A stretch of DNA of 64,000 bases. Source: Promethearchaeota archaeon (lineage in GTDB: Archaea; Asgardarchaeota; Lokiarchaeia; Sigyniarchaeales; SOKP01). Under the pieces are notes generated by a model that saw only the letters and a list, made by a program, of their open reading frames with translations, was not told the origin of the DNA and ran no database searches. A program made the position numbers and the translations under genes. The stretch spans positions 54,086-118,085 of the forward strand of contig JAHLWP010000010.1 in NCBI GenBank assembly GCA_019057865.1. The letters run 5' to 3'. Of the stretch, positions 6,328-63,809 are shown in pieces. Each line of letters opens with the position of its first letter. Position 1 is the stretch's first letter.

Positions 6328-6329
6328 CT

Positions 6330-8160: not shown

Positions 8161-8532
8161 TTAATTTGCTTTTAAAACTAATGTTATAGCTCTCGTTAAA
8201 CGAATAATATCCATTACTTTACCTTTCTCTACATTAATTTCTTCACGACTAATGGCATGCGTGAAATCACCTTTTCCATTACAAATTTTAACGATTGAAT
8301 TAGGATCTCCAGACATAACAATAACTGAATCTGATTTGGTCCCTTCTAACAAAATTGCTTTGCGGTTTTTAATATCTACATAAAAAGGGTCTTCAATATC
8401 AAGGTTGAATTGAAATGACATTTCCCAATCAACGTCCTTCCCAGCAATATTAGTTACAAAAACAACTTGAGCTTTTTCATTTTGGTTTATTTTTTCAATA
8501 ATTTTTGTTAAATTATCTCTTGCTATACCCAT
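8161..8532 (-). CDS. SCP2 sterol/lipid-binding domain protein
   Basis: FQFNLD..PFYVDI..., GDFTHAISREEINVEKG pattern; lies in a thiolase-DUF35 operon. Confidence 0.7.
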   Translation of the reverse strand: MGIARDNLTKIIEKINQNEKAQVVFVTNIAGKDVDWEMSFQFNLDIEDPFYVDIKNRKAILLEGTKSDSVIVMSGDPNSIVKICNGKGDFTHAISREEINVEKGKVMDIIRLTRAITLVLKAN

Positions 8533-8534
8533 TT

Positions 8535-9029
8535 TTACTTCCCTCCTTCATATTCAGGTTTATTAATCCAGTTTTCATATTCATCTTCTGGAACAAAGAA
8601 GAAATCTGTCATTTTCCCTTCTCTTACTTTGTTAAAAACAGCTCTAACTCTTCTTCCTTTTTTAATCTTAGAAGGAACTAAATTTTCTGAAAAAATTCCT
8701 TGAAGTAATGCGGTTTCTGCTCCATCTAATTTTATAAAGCCTATACTATAAGGTACGGCTTTTATAAATGCAGAAGTTGTATACCATACAATTGTGCTAA
8801 CTTCTATAGTTCCTGTTTGGTTCAATTCTACCCATTTAGCAGGAGCAAAACAATCAGAGCAATTGATCCTTGGAGGCATCCATGTCTTTCCACATTTAGT
8901 ACATTTTGTGCCCAATAGTTTTTTATTTTTCATTAATTCTAAAAAGAATTTGGATTGTCCTCCCATTGTGTATTTGTAGTTGATCCTTATTACATCTCTT
9001 ATTTGATGCTCCTGAAATTCTTCGCTCAT
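8535..9029 (-). CDS. DUF35 Zn-ribbon/OB-fold protein (thiolase partner)
   Basis: GTKCTKCGKTWMPPRINCSDC, IKLDGA, RVRAVF. Confidence 0.9.
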   Translation of the reverse strand: MSEEFQEHQIRDVIRINYKYTMGGQSKFFLELMKNKKLLGTKCTKCGKTWMPPRINCSDCFAPAKWVELNQTGTIEVSTIVWYTTSAFIKAVPYSIGFIKLDGAETALLQGIFSENLVPSKIKKGRRVRAVFNKVREGKMTDFFFVPEDEYENWINKPEYEGGK

Positions 9030-10375
9030 GGTTTTTTCAACCCCTCCTCATTTGTCATTACTATAACCGCAGCATATGCCGCTCCAGGGCCTCCTATTGA
9101 GTGAGCAATAGCTCTGCCATTTTCAATTGTTTTTATTTGATGCTTTCCAGCATCCTCTCTAAGCTGAAGTGCTGCTTCACCTGTAGACATTATCCCGGTA
9201 GCACCAACAGCATGACCACATCCAATTAATCCACCGCAAGGGCAACATGGTAATTCACCATCTAACCATGGCCCCTCCCCTGGTTTTTCAAAGGATTTTT
9301 CAATCCATGGACCACCTTCCCCAAAAGGAACAAACCCAAGCTCCTCATAAGAGATGACTTCTTATCCAGAGAATATCGAACTGATATTCATTGTCCTGAG
9401 AAGGCATCATGGAGCTCTGCTAAATCAATTTGTTCCTTTATTTTATTATAGTCTAAGCCTGCCATCTTATACGCGGCTTTTGCAGCAAAAATATTTGAAT
9501 ATAACCTTCCCATATCTTCTCTATTTCCTATAAAACAATCGGTATTTGCTGCTGCGACACCAGTAATCCAAATCGGCTTTTCAATTTTTAATTCTCTTAC
9601 TTTTTCTTCACTTGCGAGAATTAATGCTGCTGATGCTTCTGAATATAAACAACAATCAAGCATCTTGAAGGGATGACAAATTATCCTTGAGTATAGGACA
9701 TCATCTAAGGAAATTTTCATAGGGGATTGTGCTTTTGGATTGAGCATAGCATTCCCATGGTTTTTTACGCTAACTTTAGCCAATTTTAACTAATTGTTAA
9801 GATTTAAAGCCATTTGTTCTTCGGTAGGATTACCGAATTCTTCATAATGGGCGTTTACCATAGAAACGTACGAGGTTGCTGCCATCATTCCCATAGGATA
9901 TTTACGAAATATGTAGAACTTACACCATTTTTTCGTAAGTCATATCAGTAGAATAGGCGATGGCATTCAAAACTTCAGGTGTCGTAGTTCCTGTTTGTTC
10001 GTCATAGCAATCATTGCATTTTTCGACTCCTATACATAAACATAAGTCAGATAAGCCAGAAGCTACTTCTGCAAAAGCCATTCGGACAGTATATCCTCCT
10101 GTTGCTCCTCCTGTTGCTATACGAGTACCAGGTTTATTATTCATCCCTATATAGGAATTACAAAAAATATCTGGCATAAATTGTCTTTCAAATAGCTCAT
10201 TATAGATTCCATATACCGTAGATTGTAAATCCTTATGAGTTATTTCAGCACCGTTATTATTTGCGTCCTCAAGTGCTAATTTTGTTGCATCATATGCTAA
10301 TTCAAAATATGTCTTATCTAAATACTGGGCTTTAAAAGGAGTAATTCCTATACCTATAATCGCAACTTTCTTCAC
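9026..10375 (-). CDS. Thiolase-superfamily (SCP-x/Ltp-like) protein, 4 exons (10375-9932, 9900-9806, 9775-9393, 9363-9026), 419 aa after removing three predicted BHB introns
   Basis: 1350 nt minus 31+30+29 nt = 1260 nt = 419 codons plus stop. Spliced junctions read DMTYE/YPMG, EEQMAL/VSVKNH and ELHDAFSGQ/EVISYEELG. C-terminal GGLIGCGHAVGATG. The stop overlaps the DUF35 ATG (ATGA). Confidence 0.88.
9364..9392 (-). other. Predicted BHB mRNA intron 3 of thiolase 1 (29 nt)
   Basis: mRNA: GAUGCCUUCU-CAGG-AC^A-AUGAAUAUC(AGUUC)GAUAUUCU-CUGG-AU^A-AGAAGUCAUC. Exon stem 9/10 bp; central helix has one A.G mismatch. Removal restores the frame. Confidence 0.75.
9776..9805 (-). other. Predicted BHB mRNA intron 2 of thiolase 1 (30 nt)
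   Basis: mRNA: AAU-GGCU-UU^A-AAUCUUAAC(AAUUA)GUUAAAAUU-GGCU-AA^A-GUU. Contains an in-frame UAG. Spliced product is MALVSVKNH. Confidence 0.85.
9901..9931 (-). other. Predicted BHB mRNA intron 1 of thiolase 1 (31 nt)
   Basis: mRNA: U-UACG-AA^A-AAAUGGUGUA(AGUUC)UACAUAUUU-CGUA-AA^U-A. Perfect 4-bp central helix. Spliced product is TYEYPMG. Confidence 0.85.
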
Positions 10376-10542
10376 ATTTTTTCACATTTTATATTATTTT
10401 ATGTTTTTTGATATTAGATATATTTATTATATATTCTTTTCCAATTTTTTTTAGAGAGTAAATCGTTAAAAGTTTAAATCTTACATTATTTAATTCTATA
10501 ATTGTATTATAATTAACAGTTTGTTAACAAAAGTGAAAAAAA

Positions 10543-11577: not shown

Positions 11578-11606
11578 ATTGATATTATAAAAAAAAATAA
11601 TTTTGA

Positions 11607-13385
11607 TTATTCTTTAGTTCTTAATTCACGCCGTAATATTTTACCTACTACAGACTTGGGCAATTCTGGGATAATTTCTATTATCCTTGGATATTTAAAT
11701 GCTGAAATATTAGTTTTACACCATTCCATTAGGTCTTCTTTTGAAACTTTATCTTGATATTCAGGTTTAAGCGAGACATAAGCTTTTATATTCTCTTCCA
11801 CTTCTGGATCTGGAACTCCAACAACGCCAACTTCATTAATAGCTTCATGAAGATACATTAGATCTTCAACTTCTCTTGGAAATACAGAGTGTCCCTTATA
11901 TTTAATCATATCTCTTTTACGGTCCTTGATATGTAGGTATCCATCGTGGTCTATACAACCAATATCCGTCGTATAATACCAAGTTCTTCCTTTTGAATCT
12001 TTTCTCAATGCATATTCAGTAGCTTCTGGTCTATTTAAATAACCTAGAAATACTTGGGGTCCACAACCACAAATTTCTCCAATATATTTTGCCTCATCTG
12101 GTCCGCAGTCATCACAATTATCATTAGGGCATTGAGGCAAAATTTTTGTGCCATCTTCAGGATCAACAATTTTTATCAATGTATCTGAAACGGGGAAGCC
12201 TACTGTATTTTCCTTATATTTATGGAATGGTGTGACCGTTAATATTGGACTTGTCTCGCTCATTCCAAAACCTTCTACGATTAACGCACCAGTGATATCT
12301 TCAAATTCCTGTTTCACCTCTAAAGGGAGAGCAGAAGCCCCACTTAAGCATGCAATAAGAGAATCAAGTTTTCCTTTATACTTGATGGAACCTGGGTCTT
12401 GACTAATCTTATTCCATAAAGTTGGCACACCAGGACCAAAAGCTATGCTTTCTTGTTTAATCATTTTTAATATCTTTGAAAGCTTAGCAGGTGGTTTTAT
12501 AAATAAAACTAGTTTATATCCATGATACACTCCAATATTCATTGCTATTGATAATGCAAATTCATGTGCTAAAGGTAATACAACAAACATTCCCCCTTTA
12601 CCTAAAGTTTCTTCTACTTTTGGTAGTTGAGTTCGCACAAAAGTGCTACCCTGTTGCGCGTTTACCACAAAATTAAAATGTGACATCATACACCCTTTTG
12701 GAAGCCCTGTAGTACCTCCAGTATATATCAAAGTAGAAACGTCTTCTATAGGATTTATATTCACGGCTGGTAACTCTATCGGAAGTCCTCTTGTTAAAAA
12801 GTCTTGAAATTTATGGAAATTCACATCTCCAACTTTTGTTGGCCATTTTTTCATTCTTGGAACCTTTCCTAAAGCGGTCCCTAATTTAGCCTTCATTGGG
12901 GGCAGATATTCAGCAATTCCAGTCAATATAATATCCTTTAATGTAGGCATTTTACTCAATTCATTGCCATGTAAATATTCTTCATAGAGTATATCTAAAA
13001 TAATCAAAACTTTTCCTTTAGAATCATTTGTTTGATGAACAATTTCTGTAAATCTATTTAATGGAATGATGGGATTAGCAATAGCACCAATTCGAACTAT
13101 ACCAAAATATGTAATTACAAATTGAGGGACATTAGGTAAATCTATAAGTATAACATCCCCCTTTTTAATTCCCATTCTTGCGAGGGCTGTAGCAAATTGA
13201 TCTGCTGCTTCATCTAATTCTTTATATGTCATCTGAAATCCTTCAAAATAAATAGCTTGACTTTCTGGGTACGTCTCAGCTGTATTTCTTAACATCTGTC
13301 CTAAGGATATTTCATCATAGTCAATATGGCGAGGTGTTTCTTTAGGCCATAACTTCATCCAATACTCAGTAATTTCATCACTCAT
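11607..13385 (-). CDS. Long-chain fatty acid-CoA ligase (AMP-binding)
   Basis: YTGGTTGLPKG, EGFGMSETSP, DRKRDMI, PKSVVGKILRR. Confidence 0.93.
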   Translation of the reverse strand: MSDEITEYWMKLWPKETPRHIDYDEISLGQMLRNTAETYPESQAIYFEGFQMTYKELDEAADQFATALARMGIKKGDVILIDLPNVPQFVITYFGIVRIGAIANPIIPLNRFTEIVHQTNDSKGKVLIILDILYEEYLHGNELSKMPTLKDIILTGIAEYLPPMKAKLGTALGKVPRMKKWPTKVGDVNFHKFQDFLTRGLPIELPAVNINPIEDVSTLIYTGGTTGLPKGCMMSHFNFVVNAQQGSTFVRTQLPKVEETLGKGGMFVVLPLAHEFALSIAMNIGVYHGYKLVLFIKPPAKLSKILKMIKQESIAFGPGVPTLWNKISQDPGSIKYKGKLDSLIACLSGASALPLEVKQEFEDITGALIVEGFGMSETSPILTVTPFHKYKENTVGFPVSDTLIKIVDPEDGTKILPQCPNDNCDDCGPDEAKYIGEICGCGPQVFLGYLNRPEATEYALRKDSKGRTWYYTTDIGCIDHDGYLHIKDRKRDMIKYKGHSVFPREVEDLMYLHEAINEVGVVGVPDPEVEENIKAYVSLKPEYQDKVSKEDLMEWCKTNISAFKYPRIIEIIPELPKSVVGKILRRELRTKE

Positions 13386-16162: not shown

Positions 16163-16945
16163 ATGTCTCTAAAAGATCTCGATATCGGAGAATACATTGA
16201 ATTTAATGTAAAGAAGAGATTTGCAATAATAACACTTAATAGGGTTCATAGATCAAATGCATTTACAATTGAGCAATTAAGATTCTTAAAAAAAGCAATA
16301 GAATATTGTCAAAATTCAGAAAAAATTCGAGGTTTAATCCTAACTGCAAATGGAACAACTTTTAGTACAGGTATGGACTTGGATTTTATTGATGGTAGTG
16401 ATCATAATGCTGTAAAAGACCTTGAGAGAACTGCTGCTGAGATTTGTATGTTATTATTTAATGGAAAGCCTGCGATTGCGGCTATAAATGGCCGTTGTTT
16501 AGGTGAGGGTGTTGTATTTCTTTTATGTTGTGATTATAGGATAAATGTTAAAGACACTTATTTCCAATATCCTGAAATCTTTTCTGGTATTTTTCCGGGT
16601 ACAGGTTGTATAGTATTAATGACTAGAATTATCGGGATTCCTTGGACAAAAAGGATGTTAATGCTAGCTGAAAAGATTAGCTCTGAAAAGGCGTTAGAAA
16701 TTGGGTTAATTGATCAAATAGTTGATTCCAAAGAAGAATTGATGCAAGCTGCTATTGATAAGGCAAAATTTCTCTTTCCTAAAAATCAAACTGTTCTTAA
16801 TGCTATTAAATTGTGTTCAAATCATTTACTTGATAAAATTTATCATAAAGCTTACGAATTAGAAAAAGAGGCTTCAGGGTGGTTTGAATATGATAATAAA
16901 AATAAATTCATAAGTGATTTTAGAGAAAAGTTATCATCATTATAA
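16163..16945 (+). CDS. Enoyl-CoA hydratase/isomerase family protein
   Basis: ITLNR..NA, FSTGMDL, KPAIAAING, PE..GIFPG. Confidence 0.9.
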   Translation: MSLKDLDIGEYIEFNVKKRFAIITLNRVHRSNAFTIEQLRFLKKAIEYCQNSEKIRGLILTANGTTFSTGMDLDFIDGSDHNAVKDLERTAAEICMLLFNGKPAIAAINGRCLGEGVVFLLCCDYRINVKDTYFQYPEIFSGIFPGTGCIVLMTRIIGIPWTKRMLMLAEKISSEKALEIGLIDQIVDSKEELMQAAIDKAKFLFPKNQTVLNAIKLCSNHLLDKIYHKAYELEKEASGWFEYDNKNKFISDFREKLSSL

Positions 16946-16988
16946 TTTTAATGATATTGAAAAGAAAAAAAAGTGAAAAAGAATAAAA

Positions 16989-17765
16989 ATGTCATTTGAA
17001 GGTTTAGAATTTGGAGAATTTATAGAATTTTCTATAAAAAAAAGATTTGGAATAATTACCCTAAATAGAGCAGAACGAGCAAATGCTTTAACTACTGAAA
17101 TGTTAAAAGATTTGAAAAGAGCAATTGAGTATTGTATGGATAATGTAAAAATAAGAGGAATTATATTGACTGGAAATGGTTCAAGTTTTACAACGGGAAT
17201 GGATATTGATTCTATAGATGGAAGTAATCATGCTGCTGTTAAAGAATATGAACAAACCGCTGCCTTTATCGCGAAATCAATATATTATGGAAAACCAACC
17301 ATTTGTGCTATTAATGGTAAGGCAATGGGTGATGGTGTTGCCTATTCTCTATGCTCTGATTATCGAATAGCTGTTAAAGAAAGTTTTTTTATGATGCCTG
17401 AAATAAATTTAGGTATTTTTCCTGGAACTGGAACAATTGTGTTAATGACAAGAGTTATTGGGATACCTTGGACAAAAAAAATACTTATGTTTGCTGAAAA
17501 ATTAAGCTCTGAAAAAGCGTTAGAAATTGGATTAATTGATCAAATAGTTGATTCCCAAGAAGAATTGATGCAAGCTGCTATTGATAAAGCAAAATTTCTC
17601 TTTCCTAAAAATCAAACTGTTCTTAATGCTATTAAATTATGTAGTAACCATTTACTTGATAAATCATATAAAGAAGCATATGAATTAGAAAAATATGGGT
17701 CTGCTTGGTATGAGTATGAAGATAGAGATCAATATATTAAGGATTTTAGAAAGAGACTCTATTAA
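16989..17765 (+). CDS. Enoyl-CoA hydratase/isomerase family protein (tandem paralog)
   Basis: ITLNRAERANAL, FTTGMDI, KPTICAING, MPEINLGIFPG. Confidence 0.9.
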   Translation: MSFEGLEFGEFIEFSIKKRFGIITLNRAERANALTTEMLKDLKRAIEYCMDNVKIRGIILTGNGSSFTTGMDIDSIDGSNHAAVKEYEQTAAFIAKSIYYGKPTICAINGKAMGDGVAYSLCSDYRIAVKESFFMMPEINLGIFPGTGTIVLMTRVIGIPWTKKILMFAEKLSSEKALEIGLIDQIVDSQEELMQAAIDKAKFLFPKNQTVLNAIKLCSNHLLDKSYKEAYELEKYGSAWYEYEDRDQYIKDFRKRLY

Positions 17766-17888
17766 AAGAAAGACTTTTTTGAAGATAATAATTAATCAAA
17801 AAAGTCGATAATCTCAAATAAATTAAAACTTTTTAACTAATTCTATCAATATTAATTATTAACAACTTCATTTTATTAAAAATTAAAG

Positions 17889-19619
17889 GTGGATATTGTA
17901 AACATGTCAAGTCCTTATAAAGACCGATTCTGGCGAAAATATTGGGACGAGGGATTAACTGATTTGGATCCTAGTTTATGGAAAATTTCATATACGGAAG
18001 CCGTGAAGGATACTATTGAAAAGTTTCCTAAGAAAATGGCGTTAGCATATCAAGGCTTAGAAATAAATTATGGTGAATTAGATAAATATTCAAATCAATT
18101 TGCTAATATGTTGATTAAACAAGGGTTTAAGAAAGGAGATGTTGTAGGAATAAACTTACCAAATATACCTGAATACGTGATTGCTCTTCTTGGTACTCTT
18201 AAAGCAGGATGCATTGTTTCTGGAGTAAGTCCACTCATGTCAGATGTCCAAATGCATTACCAATTAAATGATTTAGGAGCGGGTGAAAAAAATGTTGCTC
18301 TGGTAACTTTAGACGCAATTTTCCAGCATAGATTAAAAAATATAGAATCAAAATTGCCTCAATTGAAGTTAATAGTATGGACTAGTGTTATTGGGATTTT
18401 TCCAAAAGAACAACAAGATAAAATTCGAGCTGTTAGAGATATTCCTTCAGGAGAGGTCACTCCATTAGAGGGAAAAACTGTTCTTGACTTTCATGATGAC
18501 GTCCTAGCTCAATACTCTACTGACGTACCTAAGGTCAATGTAACTCCTGATGATATAGCATTTATTCAATATACTGGAGGAACAACAGGACCTCCTAAAG
18601 GTGCTATGTTATCACATAGAAACAGTGTTTCGGATTTGTTAATTGTCCAAAAATGGCTTAGTTGGGAAAGTGGAGCAAAAATTGCACTTTCAGGATTTCC
18701 TTTTTTCCATATCGCGGGTACATTTTTCTGTGAAAACTGTATTTATCTAGGATGGGGACAAGTGCTTATACCTGATCCTAGAGATGCCTTACATATTTGT
18801 AATGAGATTAAGAAATATAAACCAACTGCTCTTGTAAATGTGCCTTCACTATTTCAAATTTTGATTAATACACGAAAATTTAAGCGATTAGATCATTCAA
18901 GTTTAGAATTCTGCATTTCTGCTGCTTCACCATTTCCAGAAGAATCGCAGAAACAATTAGAAGGTATTATAGGTGAAGGTAAATTATTAGAAGTTTATGG
19001 AATGACCGAAACTTCTCCCCTTACTACAATGAATCCTATGAAAGGCAAGAGGAAATTAGGTTCAATAGGATTACCGTTATTAAACACGGAATTAAAAATA
19101 GTTGATCCTGATACTGGAGAAGAAGTTCCCTTAGGGGAACCAGGAGAAATATGGGTAAAAGGCCCTATGGTAATGAAAGGATATTATAATAAACCTGAAG
19201 AAACTAAAAAAGCTATTGACCAAGACGGATATATACGTACTGGAGATGTCGCGATTATGGATGATAGAGGTTACCTTAGAATTGTAGATCGTACAAAAGA
19301 TATGATAATAGTAGGGGGTTATAAGTTGTTTTCTACTAAAGTTGAAGATATATTATCTAAACATCCTGCTATTGGAATGATTGCTCTAATCGGGTTGCCA
19401 AATCCAGATAGGCCGGGTTCCGAAATTGTGAAAGCTTATATACAAATAGATCCTGAGTACGAATTTGATGGAAATGAAGATGCATTAAAAGAAAATATAA
19501 TAAAATTCGCTAAAGAGAATTGTTCCCCTTATGAAGTTCCTAAAGTAGTTGAATTTTCAAAAGAGCTCCCTCTTACTGTGGTAGGAAAGATTGATAAAAA
19601 GTTATTACGCAAAGAGTAA
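17889..19619 (+). CDS. Long-chain fatty acid-CoA ligase (AMP-binding)
   Basis: YTGGTTGPPKG, YGMTETSP, RTGD, DRTKDMI, VGKIDKK. Confidence 0.93.
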   Translation: MDIVNMSSPYKDRFWRKYWDEGLTDLDPSLWKISYTEAVKDTIEKFPKKMALAYQGLEINYGELDKYSNQFANMLIKQGFKKGDVVGINLPNIPEYVIALLGTLKAGCIVSGVSPLMSDVQMHYQLNDLGAGEKNVALVTLDAIFQHRLKNIESKLPQLKLIVWTSVIGIFPKEQQDKIRAVRDIPSGEVTPLEGKTVLDFHDDVLAQYSTDVPKVNVTPDDIAFIQYTGGTTGPPKGAMLSHRNSVSDLLIVQKWLSWESGAKIALSGFPFFHIAGTFFCENCIYLGWGQVLIPDPRDALHICNEIKKYKPTALVNVPSLFQILINTRKFKRLDHSSLEFCISAASPFPEESQKQLEGIIGEGKLLEVYGMTETSPLTTMNPMKGKRKLGSIGLPLLNTELKIVDPDTGEEVPLGEPGEIWVKGPMVMKGYYNKPEETKKAIDQDGYIRTGDVAIMDDRGYLRIVDRTKDMIIVGGYKLFSTKVEDILSKHPAIGMIALIGLPNPDRPGSEIVKAYIQIDPEYEFDGNEDALKENIIKFAKENCSPYEVPKVVEFSKELPLTVVGKIDKKLLRKE

Positions 19620-21815: not shown

Positions 21816-23336
21816 TTAAAGCACTAAATGATACATCAGATATCGTTCAAATAAAAAAGTAAGTAAATAATATGGACCTAAGCAAAACAGATACCATGCT
21901 CCTAGCACAATACAAAGAGTTAAAATGTACAAAATTATTGTCTTGATTAATTTCACTATTGAAGGAAGGACTTGTCTTAATTTAAAGGTAAATGAGAAAG
22001 CAAATTTTCGAACTTTTCGCTTGAAAGAAATTTTCTTTTGTGGCATAAGAGACTGAAGAGATACAGATTCTGGAGAAAATCCATCAGGATTTGTTAAATA
22101 TATTATACCACTCTTAGTTATTATAATGTATTTAAAGGCTCTGCCATTATTATCTCTAAAAGAAGTGGATAAAAAACATCTGTTAATGAGTTCCGAAATT
22201 TTTTGTTTTATTTGCTTGTTATATTGTTTCTTATGATACTGTTTAGCTCTTTTAGATAGCTGATTAATCTCTCCTAAAAATTTTTTTGCTTGTGGAATAG
22301 AATCATATATAAAATCAGATCTTATTGCTTTTTCTGGCTGATTGTAAATAGCTCTTAATATATCAGTATTTTCTATTGTCGGTAATGGGATTATCTTTTG
22401 AGGTTTATAAGGTCTCTTTTTGTGAGAAGGGCGTGACTTTTTATAATATATACGTTTTGAAGGTCTTTTATACGATACAAAATTCGGATAATAAGTTCCC
22501 TTATAGGCAGCATTTGTATCTTCTAAATTAACTACTTTACCTTGCTTTTTATTCTCAGATCTAAGCTGAGTGAAAGTCGAGTTAATAAAAAACATTTTTG
22601 AGACCTGATCTTCATGATGACATAATGTATGATGTTCATTGTTATTATTGAATCCTGAAATGAGATTTTCCTTTGTAAAATATAATCTCAAAATATTATT
22701 ATATGAAGCACAAAAAATCAATACTTGTAAAAATTTAATCTCACCTTCAAGATAACGTCCATGATTTTTATTCTCATCAATATAATTGAATATCATAAAA
22801 TTTAAACCATCATATATAAAATCTCCTTCTTTTGGCAATTCAAAGGGCATTTTCTCTTCAAATTTTTTAATCATTTCATGATACAATGAAAAGGTAGGTT
22901 CTCGGTCAAAAAAATAATGTGTATGAAAATATTCAATAAATTTTCGAATATTTAAGAGATATTCTTTAGGTATTTCAATTAATTTGTCCCAGAATCCATC
23001 TTCTAATGCCTCATACCACACTTTTCTACCTTTAGTAGTAAATGTAAAAATAGGATACTCAATTTCATGTTGTCTGTGCCTTCTTCCTTTATCAGGTGGC
23101 TTTAATAAATCAATAGTTCTATTTCCTAATTGGATACGAGATAGATTAAAACAAGTCTGGAAGATAACGTGTTTTCTTTTATACTCTTTAAAAAGTAATC
23201 CTATGTTTTTTTTTTTAAAATCTAAAAACCCTTTCCAGCAAAAAAAGTAGAGATCAGGAGCGAAATTAAATGTAATGAGTTTTAATATTTCCTTGTTTCG
23301 TAAATTATCTAATTTATAAATTCTATCATCTATCAT
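21816..23336 (-). CDS. Hypothetical protein with C-terminal TM segment
   Basis: 506-aa ORF with hydrophobic C-terminus; no recognised motif. Confidence 0.7.
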   Translation of the reverse strand: MIDDRIYKLDNLRNKEILKLITFNFAPDLYFFCWKGFLDFKKKNIGLLFKEYKRKHVIFQTCFNLSRIQLGNRTIDLLKPPDKGRRHRQHEIEYPIFTFTTKGRKVWYEALEDGFWDKLIEIPKEYLLNIRKFIEYFHTHYFFDREPTFSLYHEMIKKFEEKMPFELPKEGDFIYDGLNFMIFNYIDENKNHGRYLEGEIKFLQVLIFCASYNNILRLYFTKENLISGFNNNNEHHTLCHHEDQVSKMFFINSTFTQLRSENKKQGKVVNLEDTNAAYKGTYYPNFVSYKRPSKRIYYKKSRPSHKKRPYKPQKIIPLPTIENTDILRAIYNQPEKAIRSDFIYDSIPQAKKFLGEINQLSKRAKQYHKKQYNKQIKQKISELINRCFLSTSFRDNNGRAFKYIIITKSGIIYLTNPDGFSPESVSLQSLMPQKKISFKRKVRKFAFSFTFKLRQVLPSIVKLIKTIILYILTLCIVLGAWYLFCLGPYYLLTFLFERYLMYHLVL

Positions 23337-23365
23337 TCTTATTTTTACTATTCAATATTAATTAT

Positions 23366-24406
23366 TTAGTCTAAATTTATTTTAATTTGAGAACTATCTT
23401 TGTAATAATAATAAATCTCAGAGAGATCTTCACACACAGTAATGAGTGAAATGTTTCTATACCGAAACTCATCACAGATCAAATCCTCAAACATCCTTTC
23501 AAGCTGGATATTAAAAAGATATTCTTTATCTCCATAGACTCCTTCTAACTGTTCCTTGGTAAGAAAATAATTCTCCTCTTCAATCCTTCTAAAATAGTCT
23601 CTGTTCATGATAAAATTTTTCCTATAGTCTTCATGAGGAGGTTTTTTTAATATCTTATCAGCGTCCTCTAAAACAATAATGCCACGAAGGACATCTGAAT
23701 TCCTAATGGGTATAAGATTTTTAATGGTTTGAAGTAGAAAAGTCACTAAAACTTTCTGGTAAAAAAGATCACATCCAGATAAATCAATACATATTGCCTT
23801 ACCCTCACTCCATAATTTTAACCATTCGGGTACTTCCAGCAGAATCTCTAATGTTCTTTCTAAAACAGGATCATTTTCGAATAAATGAATTGCTTTTTCA
23901 ATGCTTCTTATATTACTCTCTGTAAAATTATCTGAATATGGATGCTCGATTAGATTGGTCTTTAAATCCTCCAGTAAATCTACTAAGGAGCTAGGAAATT
24001 CTCCCGTCTTATAATGGTGTAGTAAACATCCCATAACAATTGTCATCTCAGGATGAAATCCAAAAATAGCGTTAATATATTCTTCAAATTGCTCTCTATT
24101 ACGTGCATCAAATTGCTCTTTGATGAAATAGGGAATTACTAAATCAGAATCTCCATACTTATACACTTTGTCAAGATGATACAGATACAAATCCTCATTC
24201 GATTTTAGCTTGATAAATAAAACTCCAATATCAGGTAATCTTACGTATAACTGGTTTAAAATGTAAGATAGTGTCGCATTCCTCTCTGCTCGGTTCTTTC
24301 CTGTAATTAAGAGGTTGTACATAAAATATCTAAGAGGAATGTTTGAAATCTCGCCTCCATTTTCATAATCCCATACCATCATACCAAGATCTATTTTTAT
24401 TGACAT
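23366..24406 (-). CDS. HerA/VirB4-like P-loop protein with degenerate Walker A
   Basis: NLLITGKNRAERN at the Walker A position, ICIDLS, IIVLEDAD (Walker B-like), EFRYRNISLITVCE. Confidence 0.6.
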   Translation of the reverse strand: MSIKIDLGMMVWDYENGGEISNIPLRYFMYNLLITGKNRAERNATLSYILNQLYVRLPDIGVLFIKLKSNEDLYLYHLDKVYKYGDSDLVIPYFIKEQFDARNREQFEEYINAIFGFHPEMTIVMGCLLHHYKTGEFPSSLVDLLEDLKTNLIEHPYSDNFTESNIRSIEKAIHLFENDPVLERTLEILLEVPEWLKLWSEGKAICIDLSGCDLFYQKVLVTFLLQTIKNLIPIRNSDVLRGIIVLEDADKILKKPPHEDYRKNFIMNRDYFRRIEEENYFLTKEQLEGVYGDKEYLFNIQLERMFEDLICDEFRYRNISLITVCEDLSEIYYYYKDSSQIKINLD

Positions 24407-24529
24407 GATTTTCGACCTTATATACTAAACTTTCGTGTCTTTAATTACTGTATTATTATTTATATTTAAAGAAAAATTAAATTCGGAATATTAAATTGAA
24501 AAATTAAAACTTCTATCATTCTTGATGGT

Positions 24530-24856
24530 TCACTTCCTTAAAAAATCATTAATCTCATCATATATCTTGACTAATTCGTTAAAGAACTCTTCATAAAAAT
24601 AATCATCCTCTCTTACATTCTCTTGTAAAAATTTGAAGGTCTTTTCTATGGTTGTTTTCAACACTTCTACTTTAATACTGTTTACTTTATTCATTTCTAA
24701 CAAAATATCGCACATTCGATTAATGACATCTCGATAACTAGGAAATTCAATACCAAATTTCAGCTTGACTTGGTCTATTTTATCCAATAGTTCCTCATTA
24801 ACTGGGATTGCCGTTCTCAATTTCTTAACTCCTCTTTTAATTGGGCAAGAATTCAT
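24530..24856 (-). CDS. Hypothetical protein, possible ribbon-helix-helix DNA binder
   Basis: TAIPVNEELLDKIDQVK...SYRDVINRM. Confidence 0.5.
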   Translation of the reverse strand: MNSCPIKRGVKKLRTAIPVNEELLDKIDQVKLKFGIEFPSYRDVINRMCDILLEMNKVNSIKVEVLKTTIEKTFKFLQENVREDDYFYEEFFNELVKIYDEINDFLRK

Positions 24857-25133
24857 TCTTTAAATTCCTGAGAGCAATTTGCTTATCTTTCTCAGATAAT
24901 TGGTCAAATTCTTCTCCAATTTTACTGTATTCATAAGGTGGGAGAGCTGTAAAGTACGAAATAACAAGTAATATACCATTTTTAACAATTTCTCTGTCTT
25001 CTTTTGTGTCCAGAATCTTCATTAGCTTTAGTAATATCTGACTCACTGAAATTATAATCGACTTGCGATTCAAACTCCTACTCTCAATATATTCAATGAT
25101 TTTCATATAGCAATTTACATCAAAATGATCCAT
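24837..25133 (-). CDS. Hypothetical protein
   Basis: 98-aa ORF with GGTGA SD upstream; overlaps the next gene. Confidence 0.55.
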   Translation of the reverse strand: MDHFDVNCYMKIIEYIESRSLNRKSIIISVSQILLKLMKILDTKEDREIVKNGILLVISYFTALPPYEYSKIGEEFDQLSEKDKQIALRNLKNEFLPN

Positions 25134-25299
25134 TATTATCTTTCTTCACCTACTATTGAAAACACCAAGATTTTTGCATATTTTTAAATGTTAAAAATCT
25201 GGGATCGTTTCATTCTCATTATGATTCTGTTCATTATTATAGATTTATTATAAATATTTAAATGTTATGATTTCATTATAAATATAGAACGATTTTGAT

Positions 25300-25497
25300 G
25301 TGATACTAAAAGTGAACGGACACCCAACTAAATACTTGTTTTATGAATCCAATAAAAAAAGCATCGTTACTGTACCACGAGCGATAATTGATGCTGCTAA
25401 TCTAAATTGGAATCATCAAGACCAAATAAATATAATCGTAAAAACTATAGATGAACAACCAGGCTTATTTCTATTTAAAAAGAAAAATAATAAATAA
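25300..25497 (+). CDS. Small AbrB/MazE-like DNA-binding protein
   Basis: SIVTVPRAIIDAANLNWNHQDQINI looped-hinge-helix pattern. Confidence 0.6.
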   Translation: MILKVNGHPTKYLFYESNKKSIVTVPRAIIDAANLNWNHQDQINIIVKTIDEQPGLFLFKKKNNK

Positions 25498-25527
25498 TAA
25501 TATTGCCTAAATTTATGATGATGTTAT

Positions 25528-26946
25528 TTGAAGGAAATGGATGAGCTTGTTCAATTTATAAAGGCTGATATAGACTTAATAAATAAAGGAATACAAAAAG
25601 ATAATCCATTGCTTTTGGATAATATTGAAAAAAATAAACATTTGTTATTTATAGAAAAAGATTTTATGATAGATTTACTCAATAAATATTGCTTTCAATC
25701 TTTACCACTGAACTATAATTATTATAAAGGCTACGTTCCTAAGGATCGGTTGGAATTATTTGAGAGTCTTTTTACTTCAGGAATAAAGAAATCCGAAATC
25801 TATAATGTTAGTTATGTAAATGGAGGTACATTTATATATTCAATGGAACAGCTTTATATTAGATTGTTCTTAACAATCTACATTGAATCTCTAATCACAT
25901 CTTTAGAAATAAAGGTTATAATTAAAAAATTATTGGATAACTGGAAATTTTTTTTGGAAGAACAAAAACTACCAGTTGAAATTTTAACATTTTTGCCTGA
26001 AGTTTTTATTGAAAAAGAAGCTGTAAAATTACCCAATAACTTTGAGATCAAAACTATTTCAAGTTTTCTACATTTTGAAAAAACAGGATCTGAATTAAGT
26101 AAAGGATTTGAAGTTTTTGGACCAATGGGCTCTTTTCTTATTTTTAAAACAGAAATTTCATGTAATCATAATTTTATAAAAGATCATCAGAAACTTAGCA
26201 ATATTGATCAAAAAATACTTATTGAAGAATGGAAAAAAAAAATGAAATCTCTTAAAGAATTAACATTTAGTCTACTTCTAGGAGGTATTAATTTTACTAA
26301 TGAATCTACAGTACTATCATTGCCTTGGTGGTTTGGAGATCAAGAACTAAAATTTAAGAGAAAAAATATAAGTATAGGGGCTATAACAATTACAGATAAA
26401 TATTTAAAACTCGTAAATGAAATCTATGAAATGGTATTAAAATTGGATATTATAAATGATAAGGAACTTGAGTTAGCACTTTTCAAATATGGTTACCTTC
26501 TTAAAAAAAAATTTTTATATGATATGATTCTAGATGAATTTATAATCCTCGAATCTATTTTTTCAAAAGGAGGGACTTCAGAAGTCTCATACCGTCTCTC
26601 ATCTAATTTAGCCTTTTTTCTTGCCGAAGACATTGAATATTTTAAGGAAATTTATAATTGTATAAAGGATCTCTATAGCATTAGAAATAAAATTGCACAC
26701 GGAGAGGATTGGACAAAAGGATTATCAAAAGAAAAATATAGAAAGCATTTAGGAATTGATGATCCTAATGCTAAAGCTGAAACAATAGCTAAAGGGATAT
26801 ATTCTAAATTGAGATATTTTATTGATGAAGTGCTGAAAAAAATAATAGAAATGAAGTATGAAAGGATTGAGGCTAGTAAAGACCCAAACATAATGAAGGA
26901 TTTTAAAGGTACCTATTTTATAGAAAATAGTAATATGTATAAATAA
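25528..26946 (+). CDS. HEPN domain protein (ApeA-like/MAE_28990 type)
   Basis: IILESIF..EVSYRLS..LAFFL..IKDLYSIRNKIAHG with Rx4H motif. Confidence 0.8.
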   Translation: MKEMDELVQFIKADIDLINKGIQKDNPLLLDNIEKNKHLLFIEKDFMIDLLNKYCFQSLPLNYNYYKGYVPKDRLELFESLFTSGIKKSEIYNVSYVNGGTFIYSMEQLYIRLFLTIYIESLITSLEIKVIIKKLLDNWKFFLEEQKLPVEILTFLPEVFIEKEAVKLPNNFEIKTISSFLHFEKTGSELSKGFEVFGPMGSFLIFKTEISCNHNFIKDHQKLSNIDQKILIEEWKKKMKSLKELTFSLLLGGINFTNESTVLSLPWWFGDQELKFKRKNISIGAITITDKYLKLVNEIYEMVLKLDIINDKELELALFKYGYLLKKKFLYDMILDEFIILESIFSKGGTSEVSYRLSSNLAFFLAEDIEYFKEIYNCIKDLYSIRNKIAHGEDWTKGLSKEKYRKHLGIDDPNAKAETIAKGIYSKLRYFIDEVLKKIIEMKYERIEASKDPNIMKDFKGTYFIENSNMYK

Positions 26947-27192
26947 CAGAAATAAAGATAATGTAAATGAATCCAGAAGCATTTAATTGCTAGGAAAGGT
27001 AAGAAATGGTCTTAATTAATGATGAAGTAATGAAAAATCCCAAAAAACAGTTTGAAAAATATATGAAAACCTATGAGACCGTTAAAAATTAATTTAAGGC
27101 TGTTGTTTCACCAAATTTAATTCATCACCAAAATTTATAAAAACTTTAATCAATTTTTAAAATATTCAAAACCAAGAGACTTAAGGATATAA

Positions 27193-28440
27193 ATGTCTGA
27201 ACAAAAAATAATTCAAGGAAAATTTTGCAAAACTAAAACAATTGGAGAAGGTAAATCGGGTAAAATTTTTGAAGTATTAGTCCTAAGAGACATTATATAC
27301 GCAAATAAAGGGGATAAATTAGCTATAAAAGAATATAAAGCTTGGGTCTTAGAAGAGCCATTCCAAACAATTAGAATTGCAAGAGAATGGACCACTGGTT
27401 CGAAAATAATATCTAATCATTTAGTAAAGACATATGAAATAATCGAAGAACAAGGAAATACCTATTTAGTGATGGAATTATTGGACGGTATTTCCTTATC
27501 CAAATATTTAGAAAATAATCCAATACTGAGTTTCCCAGAACTTATTGATATTTGTTCAGGAATTTTAGAAGGTTTACACCAACTTCATAAAAATAATTTA
27601 ATTCACAGGGATATTAAACCAGCCAATATAATGATAACAAGTAGAGGACCAGTTATTACGGATTTTGGTGTAATTAAAGATCTGAATGAATCAAATACAA
27701 TTACAGGGAGCAATCAATTTTTAGGTACAATAAAATACGCAGCTCCAGAATTATTATTTGGTAAGAGTAAAGATGATAAATCAATAAATATCTATAGTTT
27801 TGGAATGATATTATATGAATTAATTTTTAAGAAACCGTATTTTGATAAAAGCATGTATTGGAGCGAAATTATAATCCTAAAAAAAAACCCTATTACATTT
27901 CCCTTATTTTTAAATTCAGAAATATGGCGGCGTTTTGGATTTCGAGAATCACTTTTTCTATCATCAATTTTACAAGGCAGTTTAACAAAACCAGACTTAC
28001 GTTTAACTAGCGAACAATTATATACAGCATTCAGTAATAATATTTGGAAAAATTATTTTTTACATTATGTGAATTCGGATGTTATATCAATTTGGCCAGA
28101 TAATCCTGAAATATTAAAAACAAAACTTCATACATTACTTATTAAATTAGAAAAGGAAGCACCATCTGAAATTGAAGATATTATAAAAAACTTGTATTAT
28201 AACGCAGCTATAATAGAAGATTATGGATTTTACAAAATAATTGGTGTTGATGATACAGAAGGTTGGCTATATCGCTTAAGTGAATTAGGATTAATATCAG
28301 AATTAATTAATTATGAAAAAGAGTATTGGGATGAAAGAGTAGGATTTATGACTAATTTAGGATGGCAGTTTTTATTAAAATATTCCCAAGATGTTGAAAA
28401 ATTAATCCAAGACGTTAGAATCAATAGCAGTATCAAATAA
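27193..28440 (+). CDS. Hanks-type Ser/Thr protein kinase
   Basis: IGEGKSG, AIKE, HRDIKPANI, DFG, GTIKYAAPE. Confidence 0.93.
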   Translation: MSEQKIIQGKFCKTKTIGEGKSGKIFEVLVLRDIIYANKGDKLAIKEYKAWVLEEPFQTIRIAREWTTGSKIISNHLVKTYEIIEEQGNTYLVMELLDGISLSKYLENNPILSFPELIDICSGILEGLHQLHKNNLIHRDIKPANIMITSRGPVITDFGVIKDLNESNTITGSNQFLGTIKYAAPELLFGKSKDDKSINIYSFGMILYELIFKKPYFDKSMYWSEIIILKKNPITFPLFLNSEIWRRFGFRESLFLSSILQGSLTKPDLRLTSEQLYTAFSNNIWKNYFLHYVNSDVISIWPDNPEILKTKLHTLLIKLEKEAPSEIEDIIKNLYYNAAIIEDYGFYKIIGVDDTEGWLYRLSELGLISELINYEKEYWDERVGFMTNLGWQFLLKYSQDVEKLIQDVRINSSIK

Positions 28441-28658
28441 AATTGTAATAAATATTTCCAATAATCCTTAATTTCCTTAATACTTTAATTTAGAAATATC
28501 TTCGCGGACTTGTTGTGATCTATTTTTTAATCCTAATTGTTCATAAATTTCTAGGGCACTTTCGAAATTTTGAAGTTCTATGTCGATAATCTAAAGTTAT
28601 CCACGCTATTACTTGACATCTTACCTATAAATAAGCAAAAATAAGAAAATCTAAACAA

Positions 28659-28826
28659 TTAGTAAAGTGTTCTCCTTTCTAACTTATTTAACTTGATGAC
28701 ATATTCAGAACAAATTTTACATTCAGGTATCTTACATATCGCTTGATTTTTCGGCAAGATGCATGAATGAACAAATGGACATTCGAACACTATAATTTTT
28801 GGCTTATCTTTGGTTCTGCTCATCAT
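28659..28826 (-). CDS. Small Cys-rich protein (55 aa)
   Basis: Hand translation: MMSRTKDKPKIIVFECPFVHSCILPKNQAICKIPECKICSEYVIKLNKLERRTLY. Confidence 0.55.
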   Translation of the reverse strand: MMSRTKDKPKIIVFECPFVHSCILPKNQAICKIPECKICSEYVIKLNKLERRTLY

Positions 28827-29079
28827 TACTAATGATATTTGTTAAATTATATAAATAAAAAACGAGTGTTTGAATTTTAAAAAAAGAGGAGGGGAACAAT
28901 TTAATAATTAATCGTCCTGGTATTGACTTTTTTTATTTAAATGATAATAATAATTGGCTAGGTAAAGAAAAATGTGAGAGTCACTCTCAATAACTAGTTA
29001 ATAAATGCCTCATCATTTAAATAGTCGAAATCTCATGTCTAGGCTAGAGAGAAAAATTATTTTAGAGAGGAAATAAAGG

Positions 29080-29205
29080 ATGTGTAAAGAGTGTAATGAC
29101 ACTGGAAAAATTAGAATCTATAGGAATGATTTAGAGGAATTTGAAGAAATACCCTGTGATGCGTGTCATCAAGTTTATCCAGAAAGTATCTCAACTTACC
29201 ATTAA
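29080..29205 (+). CDS. Small zinc-finger protein (41 aa)
   Basis: MCKECNDTGKIRIYRNDLEEFEEIPCDACHQVYPESISTYH; CxxC...CxxC; GAGG upstream. Confidence 0.6.
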   Translation: MCKECNDTGKIRIYRNDLEEFEEIPCDACHQVYPESISTYH

Positions 29206-29379
29206 AATTCCTAAGTATAAAGCTGTTTTTGAAGTTCTCTTATCCTCACTCGTAAGGTAGCATCTGTAAAACCTATTCGGAAGCAGTAAATATTCTCTTA
29301 TTATTTTATGAAGAAAAGAAGAAATCAAATTCTAAATAAATTGACTAAATAAATAAATAGACTAATTAAATTAATGAGC

Positions 29380-30615: not shown

Positions 30616-30962
30616 TTTTTTTTAAAGTTCTAAGTAGCGTCATTTAAGAAAGTCTAATTTATTTTATTTCAGTTCATTCTATTTTGATCATATTACATTT
30701 AAATTAAAAAATGTTTATTAACTATGGAATAACTATCATTAATCTTAGTTTAATATTCAAATCACTCTTATTTAAAGAAAAAGGATTTTGGAAAAAATAA
30801 AAGAATCAGAGGAAAGAGGGGGAGTTGATATAAAAATTAAGCAATCCATAAATGATTTTGGCTTTAATGGATTAAGAACCCATCAAAAAGTATGTTGTTA
30901 GGTTTTATTTGGTTTTAAATTTGACTTTCGTATATAAAAACAAAGATACAAAGAGTTATAAT

Positions 30963-58119: not shown

Positions 58120-58300
58120 AATAATTCAAAATATTCTATTATAATTCTTTATATAATGACAGTTATACTGATGGGTATCAAAAAGATAATTAAACTTTTA
58201 ATTATTTGTGTTTACTTTTATAGCTAATTAAAAACACAAAATTAATAATTTATTCATTTTTACTATCTTTAAATAAATGCCTCCGTAGCTTAGCGGTATA

Positions 58301-58330
58301 ACTACTATTATTTTATAATCGCAGGACTAT
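58301..58330 (+). other. tRNA intron at position 23/24 (D-arm), 30 nt, relaxed BHB
   Basis: GGUA-UA^A-CUACUAUUA(UUUUA)UAAUCGCAG-GACU-AU^G. Removal restores the D stem. Confidence 0.75.
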
Positions 58331-58366
58331 GCATCCGACTTGTAATCGGAAGGTCGGGGGTTCAAA

Positions 58367-58395
58367 ATGACAATGCATTCGCATTGTAATGAAAA
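58367..58395 (+). other. tRNA intron at position 59/60 (T-loop), 29 nt, canonical BHB
   Basis: GGGGG-UUCA-AA^A-UGACAAUGC(AUUC)GCAUUGUAA-UGAA-AA^U-CCCCC. Confidence 0.92.
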
Positions 58396-58601
58396 TCCCC
58401 CCGGGGGCTTCTATATTTTATGATGAATACTATTTAACATTTTTCTGGATTATGTTGATTATGGCTGGAATTCAATTTCTAAGTTTTCTAATATTTAAAA
58501 CGATCAACAGAAAAGAATATGAACATAAACATATTTTAAAGAAATACAATATAATACAATAAAATCTCAATTATTTCCATAGCTCCCATTTTTAATTTAT
58601 T

Positions 58602-61611: not shown

Positions 61612-61648
61612 TATTCCTTTAAATTCGGAAAAAAAGGTTAAAAAAAAA

Positions 61649-62101
61649 TTATATTGGGCGAAAATATTCAATATCTAATATTCGCTTTCTTGGTTTTTCT
61701 TTAAAAACAGCTTTTACTTGCATACCCACTTTTAATTGTTTAGGATCTCCGATATTTATAATATGTACAATATCAGTGTCCGCACCATCTAATCTAATTA
61801 TTGCATAGGAGTAAGGTGGTTCAAGAGGCATTACTGGTGTTGAATGCGCAATTGTAGTAAAGCCTACAACTGTACCTTGATTTCCAACCTCTATCCATTC
61901 TTCCATTTTTTCAAAACATTCTACACAAATCATTCTGGGAGGAACAAATACTTTACTACACTTAGGACATTTTACACCCATAATTCTTTTATTTTTTCCA
62001 ATTTCGGTTATAAACCGTTCAACATATGCTCCTGCTGTGTGTTTGTAGGGTACTTTTATTTTTCCTCTAAATATTTTCTTTTCATCAATCAGGTTATCCA
62101 C
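61649..62101 (-). CDS. DUF35 Zn-ribbon/OB-fold protein
   Basis: GVKCPKCSKVFVPPRMICVEC, IRLDGAD. Confidence 0.92.
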   Translation of the reverse strand: MDNLIDEKKIFRGKIKVPYKHTAGAYVERFITEIGKNKRIMGVKCPKCSKVFVPPRMICVECFEKMEEWIEVGNQGTVVGFTTIAHSTPVMPLEPPYSYAIIRLDGADTDIVHIINIGDPKQLKVGMQVKAVFKEKPRKRILDIEYFRPI

Positions 62102-62114
62102 TTTTTCTCACCCT

Positions 62115-62603
62115 TTATGGTTTTTGTACCTCTCTAATAACTTTAAAGTATATTATATCCCCTATATTTCCTTTCCTTTCATCTTTAAATACAGCCTCAA
62201 CACGCATCCCTACTTTTAATTTAGTATAGTCCGTTTCATCTATAAAATGCATTGTAAAAGTATCAGCGCCATCTAATTTGAATAATGCATAGCCATAAGG
62301 AAAAGGACGTAGACCTCCTGTCTGAGGATCTACAAAAGGATAATTAACTACCGTGAAGCCATGCAAAGTTCCTTTTTTATCCAATTCAACTAGATCCTTT
62401 AACTCCATTTTAATAAAACATTCTGCACATACAGTTCTGGGTGGAAAATGCACTTTACCGCATTTTGGACACTTGCTTCCTAATAATTTTTTGTTTTCCT
62501 TTAGCTCTTCAAAAAATTTAACCGATAACTTACCTATGGAATACCTATAAGGTAGATCGGTTTTCCATTTAATCTCAAAAGGCTTTTCTTTCTGTTTGCT
62601 CAT
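62115..62603 (-). CDS. DUF35 Zn-ribbon/OB-fold protein
   Basis: GSKCPKCGKVHFPPRTVCAEC, KLDGAD. Confidence 0.92.
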   Translation of the reverse strand: MSKQKEKPFEIKWKTDLPYRYSIGKLSVKFFEELKENKKLLGSKCPKCGKVHFPPRTVCAECFIKMELKDLVELDKKGTLHGFTVVNYPFVDPQTGGLRPFPYGYALFKLDGADTFTMHFIDETDYTKLKVGMRVEAVFKDERKGNIGDIIYFKVIREVQKP

Positions 62604-62612
62604 ATTTTTTAT

Positions 62613-63809
62613 TCACCTCATAGGTTCTTTTCCTAATATTAGTATTTCTGTCCAAAGTGAACCGCCAAATCCCATTGCTAAAGCATTTTCTGCATCAGGT
62701 ACTTGACGTTTTTCACCTCTGCCCATTACTTGAGTTGCTGCCTCAGCTACTCGAATTAATGCTGTAGCACCTATAGGATTAGTACTCAATACACCTCCCG
62801 ATGGATTAACTGGTAATTCTCCACTCATTTCAGTAATTCCCTCATCTAACAACTTCCCTCCTTCACCAAATTTAGCAAATCCTAGGGCTTCTGTCCATGC
62901 TAATTCGCTCCAACTTGTGGGTTCATATATTTCAGCGACATCTAAATCTTTTATTGGATTAGTGATTCCTGCTTTTTTATAAGCTTTCTTTGAAGCAATC
63001 GTAGCTGTAGGGAGATTATACATTGCATCATCAGTCCCAAAGGTATAATAATGAGCAGTTTCTAAGGCTTTAAACCATGCCGGATTATCTGTTATCTTCT
63101 TAGCTTCTTCTTTATTTGCATAAATTAGAGCACATGCTCCTTCACTCTGTGGACAGCAATCATGTAATCTTAATGGATATGATATCATCTGTGAACTCAT
63201 AACATAATCTACAGTAATATCAGGCATTTGTAGATGTGCAAATGGATTATTAGCGGCATTACGACGATTTTTTACAGTAACTTTTGCTGCTTGTTCTGGT
63301 GTTGCGCCATATTTATCTTGATACATAGATGCCATAAGGGCTAGTGGACCGAGAGCACCAGCTAAAGATGGTCTTTCCCATACCGGATCAAATGCTGTTA
63401 TTATACCGGTAGTAGCTCCACCTTCTTTTAATTTTTCCCAACCAACAACTAAAACCTTGTTATAAATTCCTGAGGCAACATTGTGATAACCACATATAGC
63501 TAAGGAACTACCCGTTGTGCCACCTGTTGCAACCTTAACTACAGGTTTTAAATATCCAGGAGCTCCTTCAATTCCACAGAATAATTCAGAGAAATTAATT
63601 CCTTCAAAATGGTCCATTTAGTATTTAATCTCGAGATGAAATTAAATATTACCAATGACGATCGCATCAATCTCTTTAGGTTCAAGTTGAGCATCATCAA
63701 GAGCCATCTTTACGGCTTCGTATACCATCTCAGGGATATTAACATCTCTTCTCTTACTCCTAAATTTAGTCTGACCTATGCCGACTACGGCTACATCATG
63801 TCTCGGCGT
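62613..63809 (-). CDS. Thiolase-superfamily (SCP-x/Ltp-like) protein, 2 exons (63809-63648, 63617-62613), 388 aa after removing one predicted BHB intron
   Basis: Exon 1 reads (ACG)PRHDVAVVGIGQTKF...DAQLEPKEIDAIVIGN and joins MDHFEGIN... of ORF 62613..63617. VKNRRNA, AEIYEP, PVNPSGG, NPIGATA. Confidence 0.88.
63618..63647 (-). other. Predicted BHB mRNA intron of thiolase 2 (30 nt)
   Basis: mRNA: GGUA-AU^A-UUUAAUUUC(AUCUC)GAGAUUAAA-UACU-AA^A-UGGAC. 9-bp intron stem; in-frame UAA. Spliced product is IGNMDHF. Confidence 0.87.

Follow-up and report, generated by a model that had tools for sequence, protein, structure and literature searches.

The two interrupted thiolase loci

We analysed a stretch of 64,000 nucleotides (nt) from Promethearchaeota archaeon (GenBank assembly GCA_019057865.1), hereafter the window, which forms the terminal part of contig C7 in a 4.26-Mb draft genome (G000; 29% GC, 87 contigs, 5% contamination). 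Its two genes for thiolase-fold proteins, thiolase 1 and thiolase 2, are interrupted by inserts of 29-31 nt that have the form of bulge-helix-bulge (BHB) introns. Thiolase 1, on the minus strand at 10375-9026, has three of them: 31 nt long at 9931-9901, 30 nt at 9805-9776 and 29 nt at 9392-9364. All three are clean gaps in alignments with orthologues from about 20 genomes, and the Poisson probability of three introns within this one 1.26-kb gene is 1e-6. Thiolase 2 (63809-62613, minus strand) has a single insert of 30 nt at 63647-63618, which is a clean gap against orthologues from 13 genomes and is absent in 13/13 of them. The features of the two loci are as follows.

9932-10375, minus strand: thiolase 1 exon 1; GTG start; Gly in place of the nucleophile Cys
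9901-9931, minus strand: intron 1, 31 nt, after codon E148; perfect central helix UACG/CGUA, loop AGUUC
9806-9900, minus strand: thiolase 1 exon 2
9776-9805, minus strand: intron 2, 30 nt, in codon L180; in-frame TAG
9393-9775, minus strand: thiolase 1 exon 3
9364-9392, minus strand: intron 3, 29 nt, in codon Q308; relaxed BHB with one A.G mismatch
9026-9363, minus strand: thiolase 1 exon 4; stop overlaps the DUF35 start (ATGA)
8535-9029, minus strand: DUF35 gene (ChsH2-type); intronless here, in 42 other copies from the genus and in 69 metagenome copies
8161-8532, minus strand: third gene, 123 aa; intronless in 60 metagenome copies
63648-63809, minus strand: thiolase 2 exon 1; ACG start, where most orthologues have ATG
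63618-63647, minus strand: intron 4, 30 nt; canonical BHB with GGUA/UACU, 9-bp stem and 5-nt loop; two in-frame TAA
62613-63617, minus strand: thiolase 2 exon 2
62115-62603, minus strand: DUF35 gene, intronless
61649-62101, minus strand: second DUF35 gene, intronless

The third gene of the thiolase 1 locus had no match in Pfam or NCBIfam. Both thiolases share the SCP2-type thiolase fold and an adjacent DUF35 with archaeal acetoacetyl-CoA thiolase (PDB 6ESQ) and with the Ltp2 and Sal aldolases (PMC12329534), but they differ from 6ESQ in that Gly is aligned with its nucleophile Cys, so that "thiolase" here denotes the thiolase fold. The nucleophilic Cys that degradative thiolases have in the N-terminal CxS loop was found in neither protein, and their motif is HDAF, as opposed to the YDHF or YDCY of Ltp2/Sal-type aldolases. 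A role of the two thiolase-fold/DUF35 pairs in lipid catabolism is itself something that we infer from sequence, and their chemistry is uncertain.

A first-pass annotation of the window had placed every convincing mRNA intron in the first gene of a thiolase-DUF35 operon. The adjacency to DUF35 stands, but thiolase 2 is the second gene, downstream of another thiolase, in 13/13 orthologous loci; in G000 this upstream partner is located on contig C22. The final 70 nt of the contig (63930-64000), upstream of thiolase 2, are a repeat that is also present at the ends of C17, C18 and C25. Separately from its introns, thiolase 1 has an intron-free mosaic patch at about 9250-9330, where a 5-residue insert and its flanking tract are as in the G005/G015 clade and unlike those of its kin.

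BHB structure and predicted splicing machinery

The 4-bp central helix, formed by exon positions -6 to -3 with the 3' end of the intron, has 4/4 pairs in introns 1, 2 and 4 and 3/4 in intron 3. A 4-bp central helix together with a constrained energy of at most -3, as in introns 1, 2 and 4, occurs at 0.03% of random coding positions. Intron stems are 7-9 bp long, while the exon stem is weak in introns 1 and 4 and strong in intron 3; without constraint, the minimum-energy fold of intron 1 takes an alternative register. When each 3-nt bulge is cut behind its second nucleotide, the sequence of the intronless orthologues is recovered at all four sites. For intron 2, the junction drawn by this EndA rule gives Leu, as in the three closest relatives (G056, with 88% nucleotide identity across 13 kb, G055 and G063), where plain removal of the duplicated end would give Lys. 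All four introns are absent from the thiolase 1 and thiolase 2 genes of these relatives. The joined frames are open with dN/dS of about 0.03-0.05, and, as the first-pass annotation had claimed, each intron stops translation if retained, within 1-5 codons. About 85% of random inserts of the same size and composition would break the frame as well.

We take the four inserts to be BHB introns, and we infer from these features that they are actually and constitutively spliced. Two endA paralogues of G000 exceed the TIGR00324 cut-off; the catalytic His is present in one of them and missing from the other. An RtcB was recognised by motif only. Asgard EndA is reported to be of the broad-specificity (alpha-beta)2 type (PMC5829648). 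The window further contains one tRNA gene with introns of the same size:

58279-58409, plus strand: tRNA-Thr(UGU) with two non-canonical introns, at about 58302-58331 and 58367-58395

This gene becomes a normal 72-nt tRNA only once 30 and 29 nt are removed. It is the sole full copy in a motif scan, with ARAGORN giving one further, doubtful Thr(tgt), and judged by its sequence it is an internal control for splicing of 29-30 nt introns in this cell. Both of its introns are present in G056 and none in G005; G015 has another one, closer to the 5' end. ARAGORN reported only 18 tRNAs in G000.

The draft state of the assembly and the position of thiolase 2 near a contig end would be compatible with an assembly or sequencing artefact. 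Against this, intron 2 recurs almost unchanged (28/30 identical) at the same site in independent metagenomes (loci L265/L269), and the BHB structure is far beyond chance; we regard an artefact as scarcely credible. It is also improbable, to a far lesser degree, that the hairpins are unspliced insertions and both thiolase genes recent pseudogenes. Thiolase 2 starts with ACG and no longer has its usual partner upstream, twelve intact paralogues are present, and a low dN/dS would be compatible with very recent loss. However, each of three independent inserts is BHB-shaped and has borders exact to the frame, without any further lesion; inserts of this type also occur in single-copy essential genes (rps12, rpoA' and cdhD are single-copy), and same-site introns with compensatory changes persist in other lineages. 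The start codon of thiolase 2 (63807-63809) is ATT at the same codon in G015 and ATG in the remaining orthologues.

Distribution across the genome

The gene content is indicative of a Loki-type Asgard archaeon, with Wood-Ljungdahl genes, roadblock and small GTPases, the alpha-beta EndA and in-frame TGA in Hdr/Mvh-like genes. We compared G000 with proteins from sampled regions of two genomes, which amount to 1.2 of 3.3 Mb in G006 and to 1.0 of 3.5 Mb in G056, and with the loci found by searches. The census was built on homologues because homology-free BHB scans of the genome did not exceed their controls (257 hits versus 259 and 286 in frame-shifted controls). It covers 1,470 genes, or about 1.2-1.4 Mb of coding sequence. 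SepSecS differs by 33 nt in frame (C41 175251), a case that was excluded as uncertain.

Within the window there are 57 open reading frames (ORFs), of which 36 are covered to at least 80% by orthologues and are thus testable; the ORF at 35550-35822 is probably spurious, and the other 21, mainly at 21.8-35 kb, have no counterpart in the relatives searched and are not comparable by homology. The two thiolase-fold genes are the only interrupted ones among the 36, so the earlier claim that introns occur only in thiolases is right for the window. It fails for the genome, where 16/1,470 genes contain a disruptive BHB-like insert and 13/16 are outside lipid families, which is also the outcome of the functional-enrichment check that had been proposed with the claim. 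These include cdhD, fwdA, cooS, rps12, rpoA' (65 nt), and genes for a ferredoxin-domain protein, a CCG Fe-S oxidoreductase, a Zn dehydrogenase, a roadblock protein, a dodecin, a sugar epimerase, a hydrolase and a vWA protein. Further comparisons add leuS with four introns, a small GTPase and acs; the leuS introns were verified, although leuS is outside the 1,470-gene table since the best match of the query was a paralogue. The earlier caution that in-frame introns without stops could have been missed proved apt for the genome, as 3/5 of the acs introns are in frame and stop-free, but no such intron was found in the testable window genes. The comparison genome G006 has introns of its own, among them a 28-nt one in rpl11 (L093 9379) and a 30-nt one in another non-lipid gene (L231 17488); the G056 sample had none missing from G000. 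The 65-nt insert of rpoA' (C27, about 30478, minus strand) lies in the conserved CxGHFGH zinc motif and may be two tandem or nested introns.

Base composition separates interrupted from intact genes more clearly. Introns occur in 2.6% of genes with GC of at least 33% and in 0.2% of those below, intron flanks have 45% GC versus 32%, and GC12 and GC3 are both raised in intron genes. Within lipid families, introns were found in 2/14 thiolase-fold, 2/14 acyl-CoA dehydrogenase and 1/20 AMP-binding (acs) genes, and in 0/18 enoyl-CoA hydratase (ECH), 0/7 DUF35 and 0/4 3-hydroxyacyl-CoA dehydrogenase-like genes. Compared with a background of 13/1,378, which misses shared introns, the first two families reach p=0.009 each, post hoc; when the thiolase-fold genes are compared with genes of GC at least 36%, the value is p=0.07. 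GC is a stronger predictor of introns than lipid family. Lipid genes of the window other than the two thiolase loci include:

16163-19619, plus strand: two enoyl-CoA hydratases and an acyl-CoA ligase, intronless
11607-13385: second acyl-CoA ligase

These counts bear on the suggestion of the first-pass annotation that the introns form a regulated switch of the HAC1/XBP1 kind, in which condition-dependent splicing of the thiolase mRNAs would gate lipid or steroid side-chain catabolism along with the translationally coupled DUF35. The stops on retention, the overlap of the thiolase 1 stop with the DUF35 start, the p=0.009 of two lipid families and a suboptimal BHB in intron 3 that could be rate-limiting would all fit such a switch. 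Disruption is, however, what most random inserts would cause anyway, and acs has stop-free introns. Moreover, 12/14 thiolase-fold genes are intact, housekeeping genes carry the same introns, and intron positions vary among lineages and are not conserved across the genus, with thiolase 1 free of them in 35/39 genomes. No match to an IRE1-type RNase (PF06479) was found in G000, although control genomes had none either. We consider the switch unlikely, and it should be given up as a lead unless RNA data revive it; the introns look like mobile passengers that are tolerated rather than a switch of lipid metabolism.

Thiolase 1 as a hot spot

Across the genus, thiolase 1 is interrupted in 4/39 genomes, and 30-nt canonical BHB introns are present in 11/80 metagenome thiolase 1 loci. 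Seven intron positions are used across lineages (window numbering): after E126, Q127, Y147 and E148, and in M153, L180 and Q308. In G002 (L018, about 1345-1425) two BHB introns of 34 and 31 nt are split by a 16-nt micro-exon. G062 and G067 have one intron in common, its letters being taken from a pattern-search match. Introns at the codon-127 site in four lineages keep their pairing via two compensatory changes. As a control gene from the same window we used cdhC:

36501-37931, plus strand: cdhC, intact in G000

Matches to cdhC that are longer by about 30 nt and contain stops occur in 5/46 genus genomes, the BHB nature of these inserts being assumed from span and stops. Thiolase 1 is therefore a hot spot, but not a special one, cdhC being interrupted as often. 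Targeting of the thiolase family as a whole was ruled out: of the roughly 150 thiolase-fold copies listed, those with stops are all thiolase 1 orthologues, apart from the window's thiolase 2. In G058 (C141/C75) and G059 (C44/C94), thiolase 1 and cdhC are broken over contig ends with overlap, and these are possibly intron-polymorphic sites.

The genes co-transcribed with thiolase 1 have no introns at all: given the 7 positions in thiolase 1, about 4.8 would be expected by length in DUF35 and the third gene, which have 0 (P about 0.008). This argues against transcript abundance alone as the cause. The conservation of the two genes is 84% and 70%, respectively, versus 89% for thiolase 1. The earlier alternative of preferential insertion into abundant or structured transcripts thus holds insofar as thiolase 1 is repeatedly targeted, but the bias is towards GC-rich conserved coding sequence and not towards abundance.

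Flanking exons and proposed movement between alleles

Introns at the same site of thiolase 1 are found on separate branches of the gene tree. In L265 the exon sequence is identical over a 26-nt run across the intron 2 junction, while the gene is only 79% identical overall and lies on another branch. The site of intron 3 also holds a different 30-nt intron in L277/L287 and their kin, and within 20 nt of it informative sites match this distant intron-bearing clade at 8/8, versus 37/196 elsewhere. A similar pattern of foreign flanks surrounds the intron of L240. When 11 introns were pooled and synonymous differences from intronless G056 were normalised per amino acid, they were 1.64x the expected value within 24 nt on both sides, 1.3x at 25-45 nt and about 1.05x beyond. 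Transfer of a whole thiolase 1 allele from an intron-rich donor is ruled out, as the gene groups with its kin and the foreign tracts are short only. Target-site duplication as a general origin is weak (mean of 3.7/10 matches versus 2.9 background) and visible only at introns 2 and 3.

The simplest reading of these flanks, as far as sequence comparison goes, is that they suggest homology-dependent DNA exchange with short co-conversion tracts. Such exchange would explain both the preference for conserved motifs and the piling up of several introns in one gene. We therefore propose, with a probability of roughly two in three, that the BHB introns are tolerated passengers with a bias towards GC-rich conserved sequence and that they move between alleles by DNA exchange. 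In this mechanism, the (alpha-beta)2 EndA would excise the four introns from the mRNA and RtcB would rejoin the exons, as housekeeping enzymes do for tRNA introns. Introns would persist where the exon offers a GC-rich 4-mer for the central helix, mostly in conserved motifs of conserved enzymes. They would pass between species from allele to allele of one gene, each time replacing about 25-45 nt of exon on either side, and thiolase 1 could gather several because the pool of alleles already has introns at several sites. The occurrence of two interrupted thiolases in one window would, as part of the same explanation and with the same confidence, come from the GC and conservation bias together with the clustering of thiolase-fold genes on contig C7.

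Several observations weigh against this proposal. Intron 3 and its putative donor clade have site and flanks in common but differ in intron sequence. At intron 2 the flank signal is a small one of 3 sites within a single codon (p=0.04), and the intronless alleles L275 and L295 match it too. Foreign-looking flanks could arise partly from selection on the exon for the outer helix, and no mobilising enzyme or trans-acting nuclease was identified. The coverage of the census is limited and it is blind to introns also present in the comparison genome, and the post hoc excess in thiolase-fold and acyl-CoA dehydrogenase genes has to be counted here as well.

In an alternative route, excised intron circles would be reverse-spliced into abundant mRNAs, which would then be reverse-transcribed and integrated. 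The introns are of a uniform size class, and 12/15 of the five-nucleotide loops in the genome-wide catalogue fit A-N-N-U-C, a common pentaloop that hints at shared ancestry or a binding factor. A 13-mer is common to introns of acs and leuS, longer than in 198/200 shuffles, likely abundant transcripts are among the targets, and one protein with a reverse transcriptase domain, the only one found, is encoded in G000 (1,033-aa ORF, C11 10261-10734). On the other hand, the co-transcribed DUF35 and third gene are free of introns, and cDNA of the cell's own mRNA would not import foreign synonymous flanks. We find this route doubtful as a general explanation, if somewhat less so than the switch or the pseudogenes; it may have a part in the first birth of an intron at a new site.

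Comparison with known systems

Homing introns include group I introns and archaeal rRNA BHB introns with LAGLIDADG ORFs. The thiolase introns resemble them in being patchy at fixed sites in conserved sequence with co-converted flanking exon, a combination that we found most strongly for intron 3 and the pooled set, but they are only 29-31 nt long and encode no endonuclease. A broader proposal is that Loki-type Asgard genomes hold a genome-wide population of ORF-less mRNA introns of about 30 nt with an ANNUC pentaloop, which would home from one species to another, enter conserved genes at the same codons and co-convert 25-45 nt, and we judge the arguments for and against it to be evenly balanced. 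If true, there would be multi-exon mRNAs with exons down to 16 nt (G002), a protein-spliced prokaryotic analogue of intron invasion, and a traceable arrival of introns.

The BHB intron in cbf5 pre-mRNA of Desulfurococcales and Sulfolobales is a single ancient, vertically inherited intron in one gene (PMC2738675). By all testable features of their sequences the introns of G000 belong to this class, as a multi-gene and apparently laterally spreading variant of it; they differ in affecting many genes, some with as many as 3-5 introns, in occurring patchily at the same sites and in showing signs of lateral exchange. They share with the non-canonical tRNA introns of Thermoproteales and Asgard (10.64898/2026.10.13.758758; PMC5829648) repeated recent gains at BHB-compatible sites, a similar size and the same enzyme, but they are located in mRNA, where synonymous flanks record the donor. 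Like HAC1/XBP1 (PMC5333776), splicing in G000 would employ a protein endonuclease and a tRNA ligase or RtcB on an mRNA whose retained intron blocks the product; unlike it, the mRNA encodes an enzyme instead of a transcription factor, its intron lacks conservation, and the BHB motif is one for the housekeeping EndA.

Published archaeal mRNA splicing concerns essentially one gene, cbf5, and our literature search returned no account of Asgard archaea with numerous intron-bearing mRNAs or with several introns in one mRNA. A recent preprint describes the way in which Asgard BHB introns arrive as the central open problem. Coding exons hold a synonymous-site record that tRNA genes cannot, so that thiolase 1, with its seven positions, makes lateral homing directly testable. 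In addition, intron-bearing genes are annotated as fragments or pseudogenes, which skews metabolic reconstructions and marker-gene sets.

Other observations

The amino-acid ABC transporter and aminotransferase genes at 1031-7843 of the window have 38-43% GC versus 29% for the genome, are patchy in relatives and were possibly acquired. The region 21816-35000, with a Ser/Thr kinase, a TaqI-like specificity domain, an ABC ATPase and ORFs without assigned function, is absent from the five relatives searched. On contigs C14, C23 and C37, many in-frame TGA codons occur at Cys positions of Hdr/Mvh-like proteins and probably encode selenocysteine.

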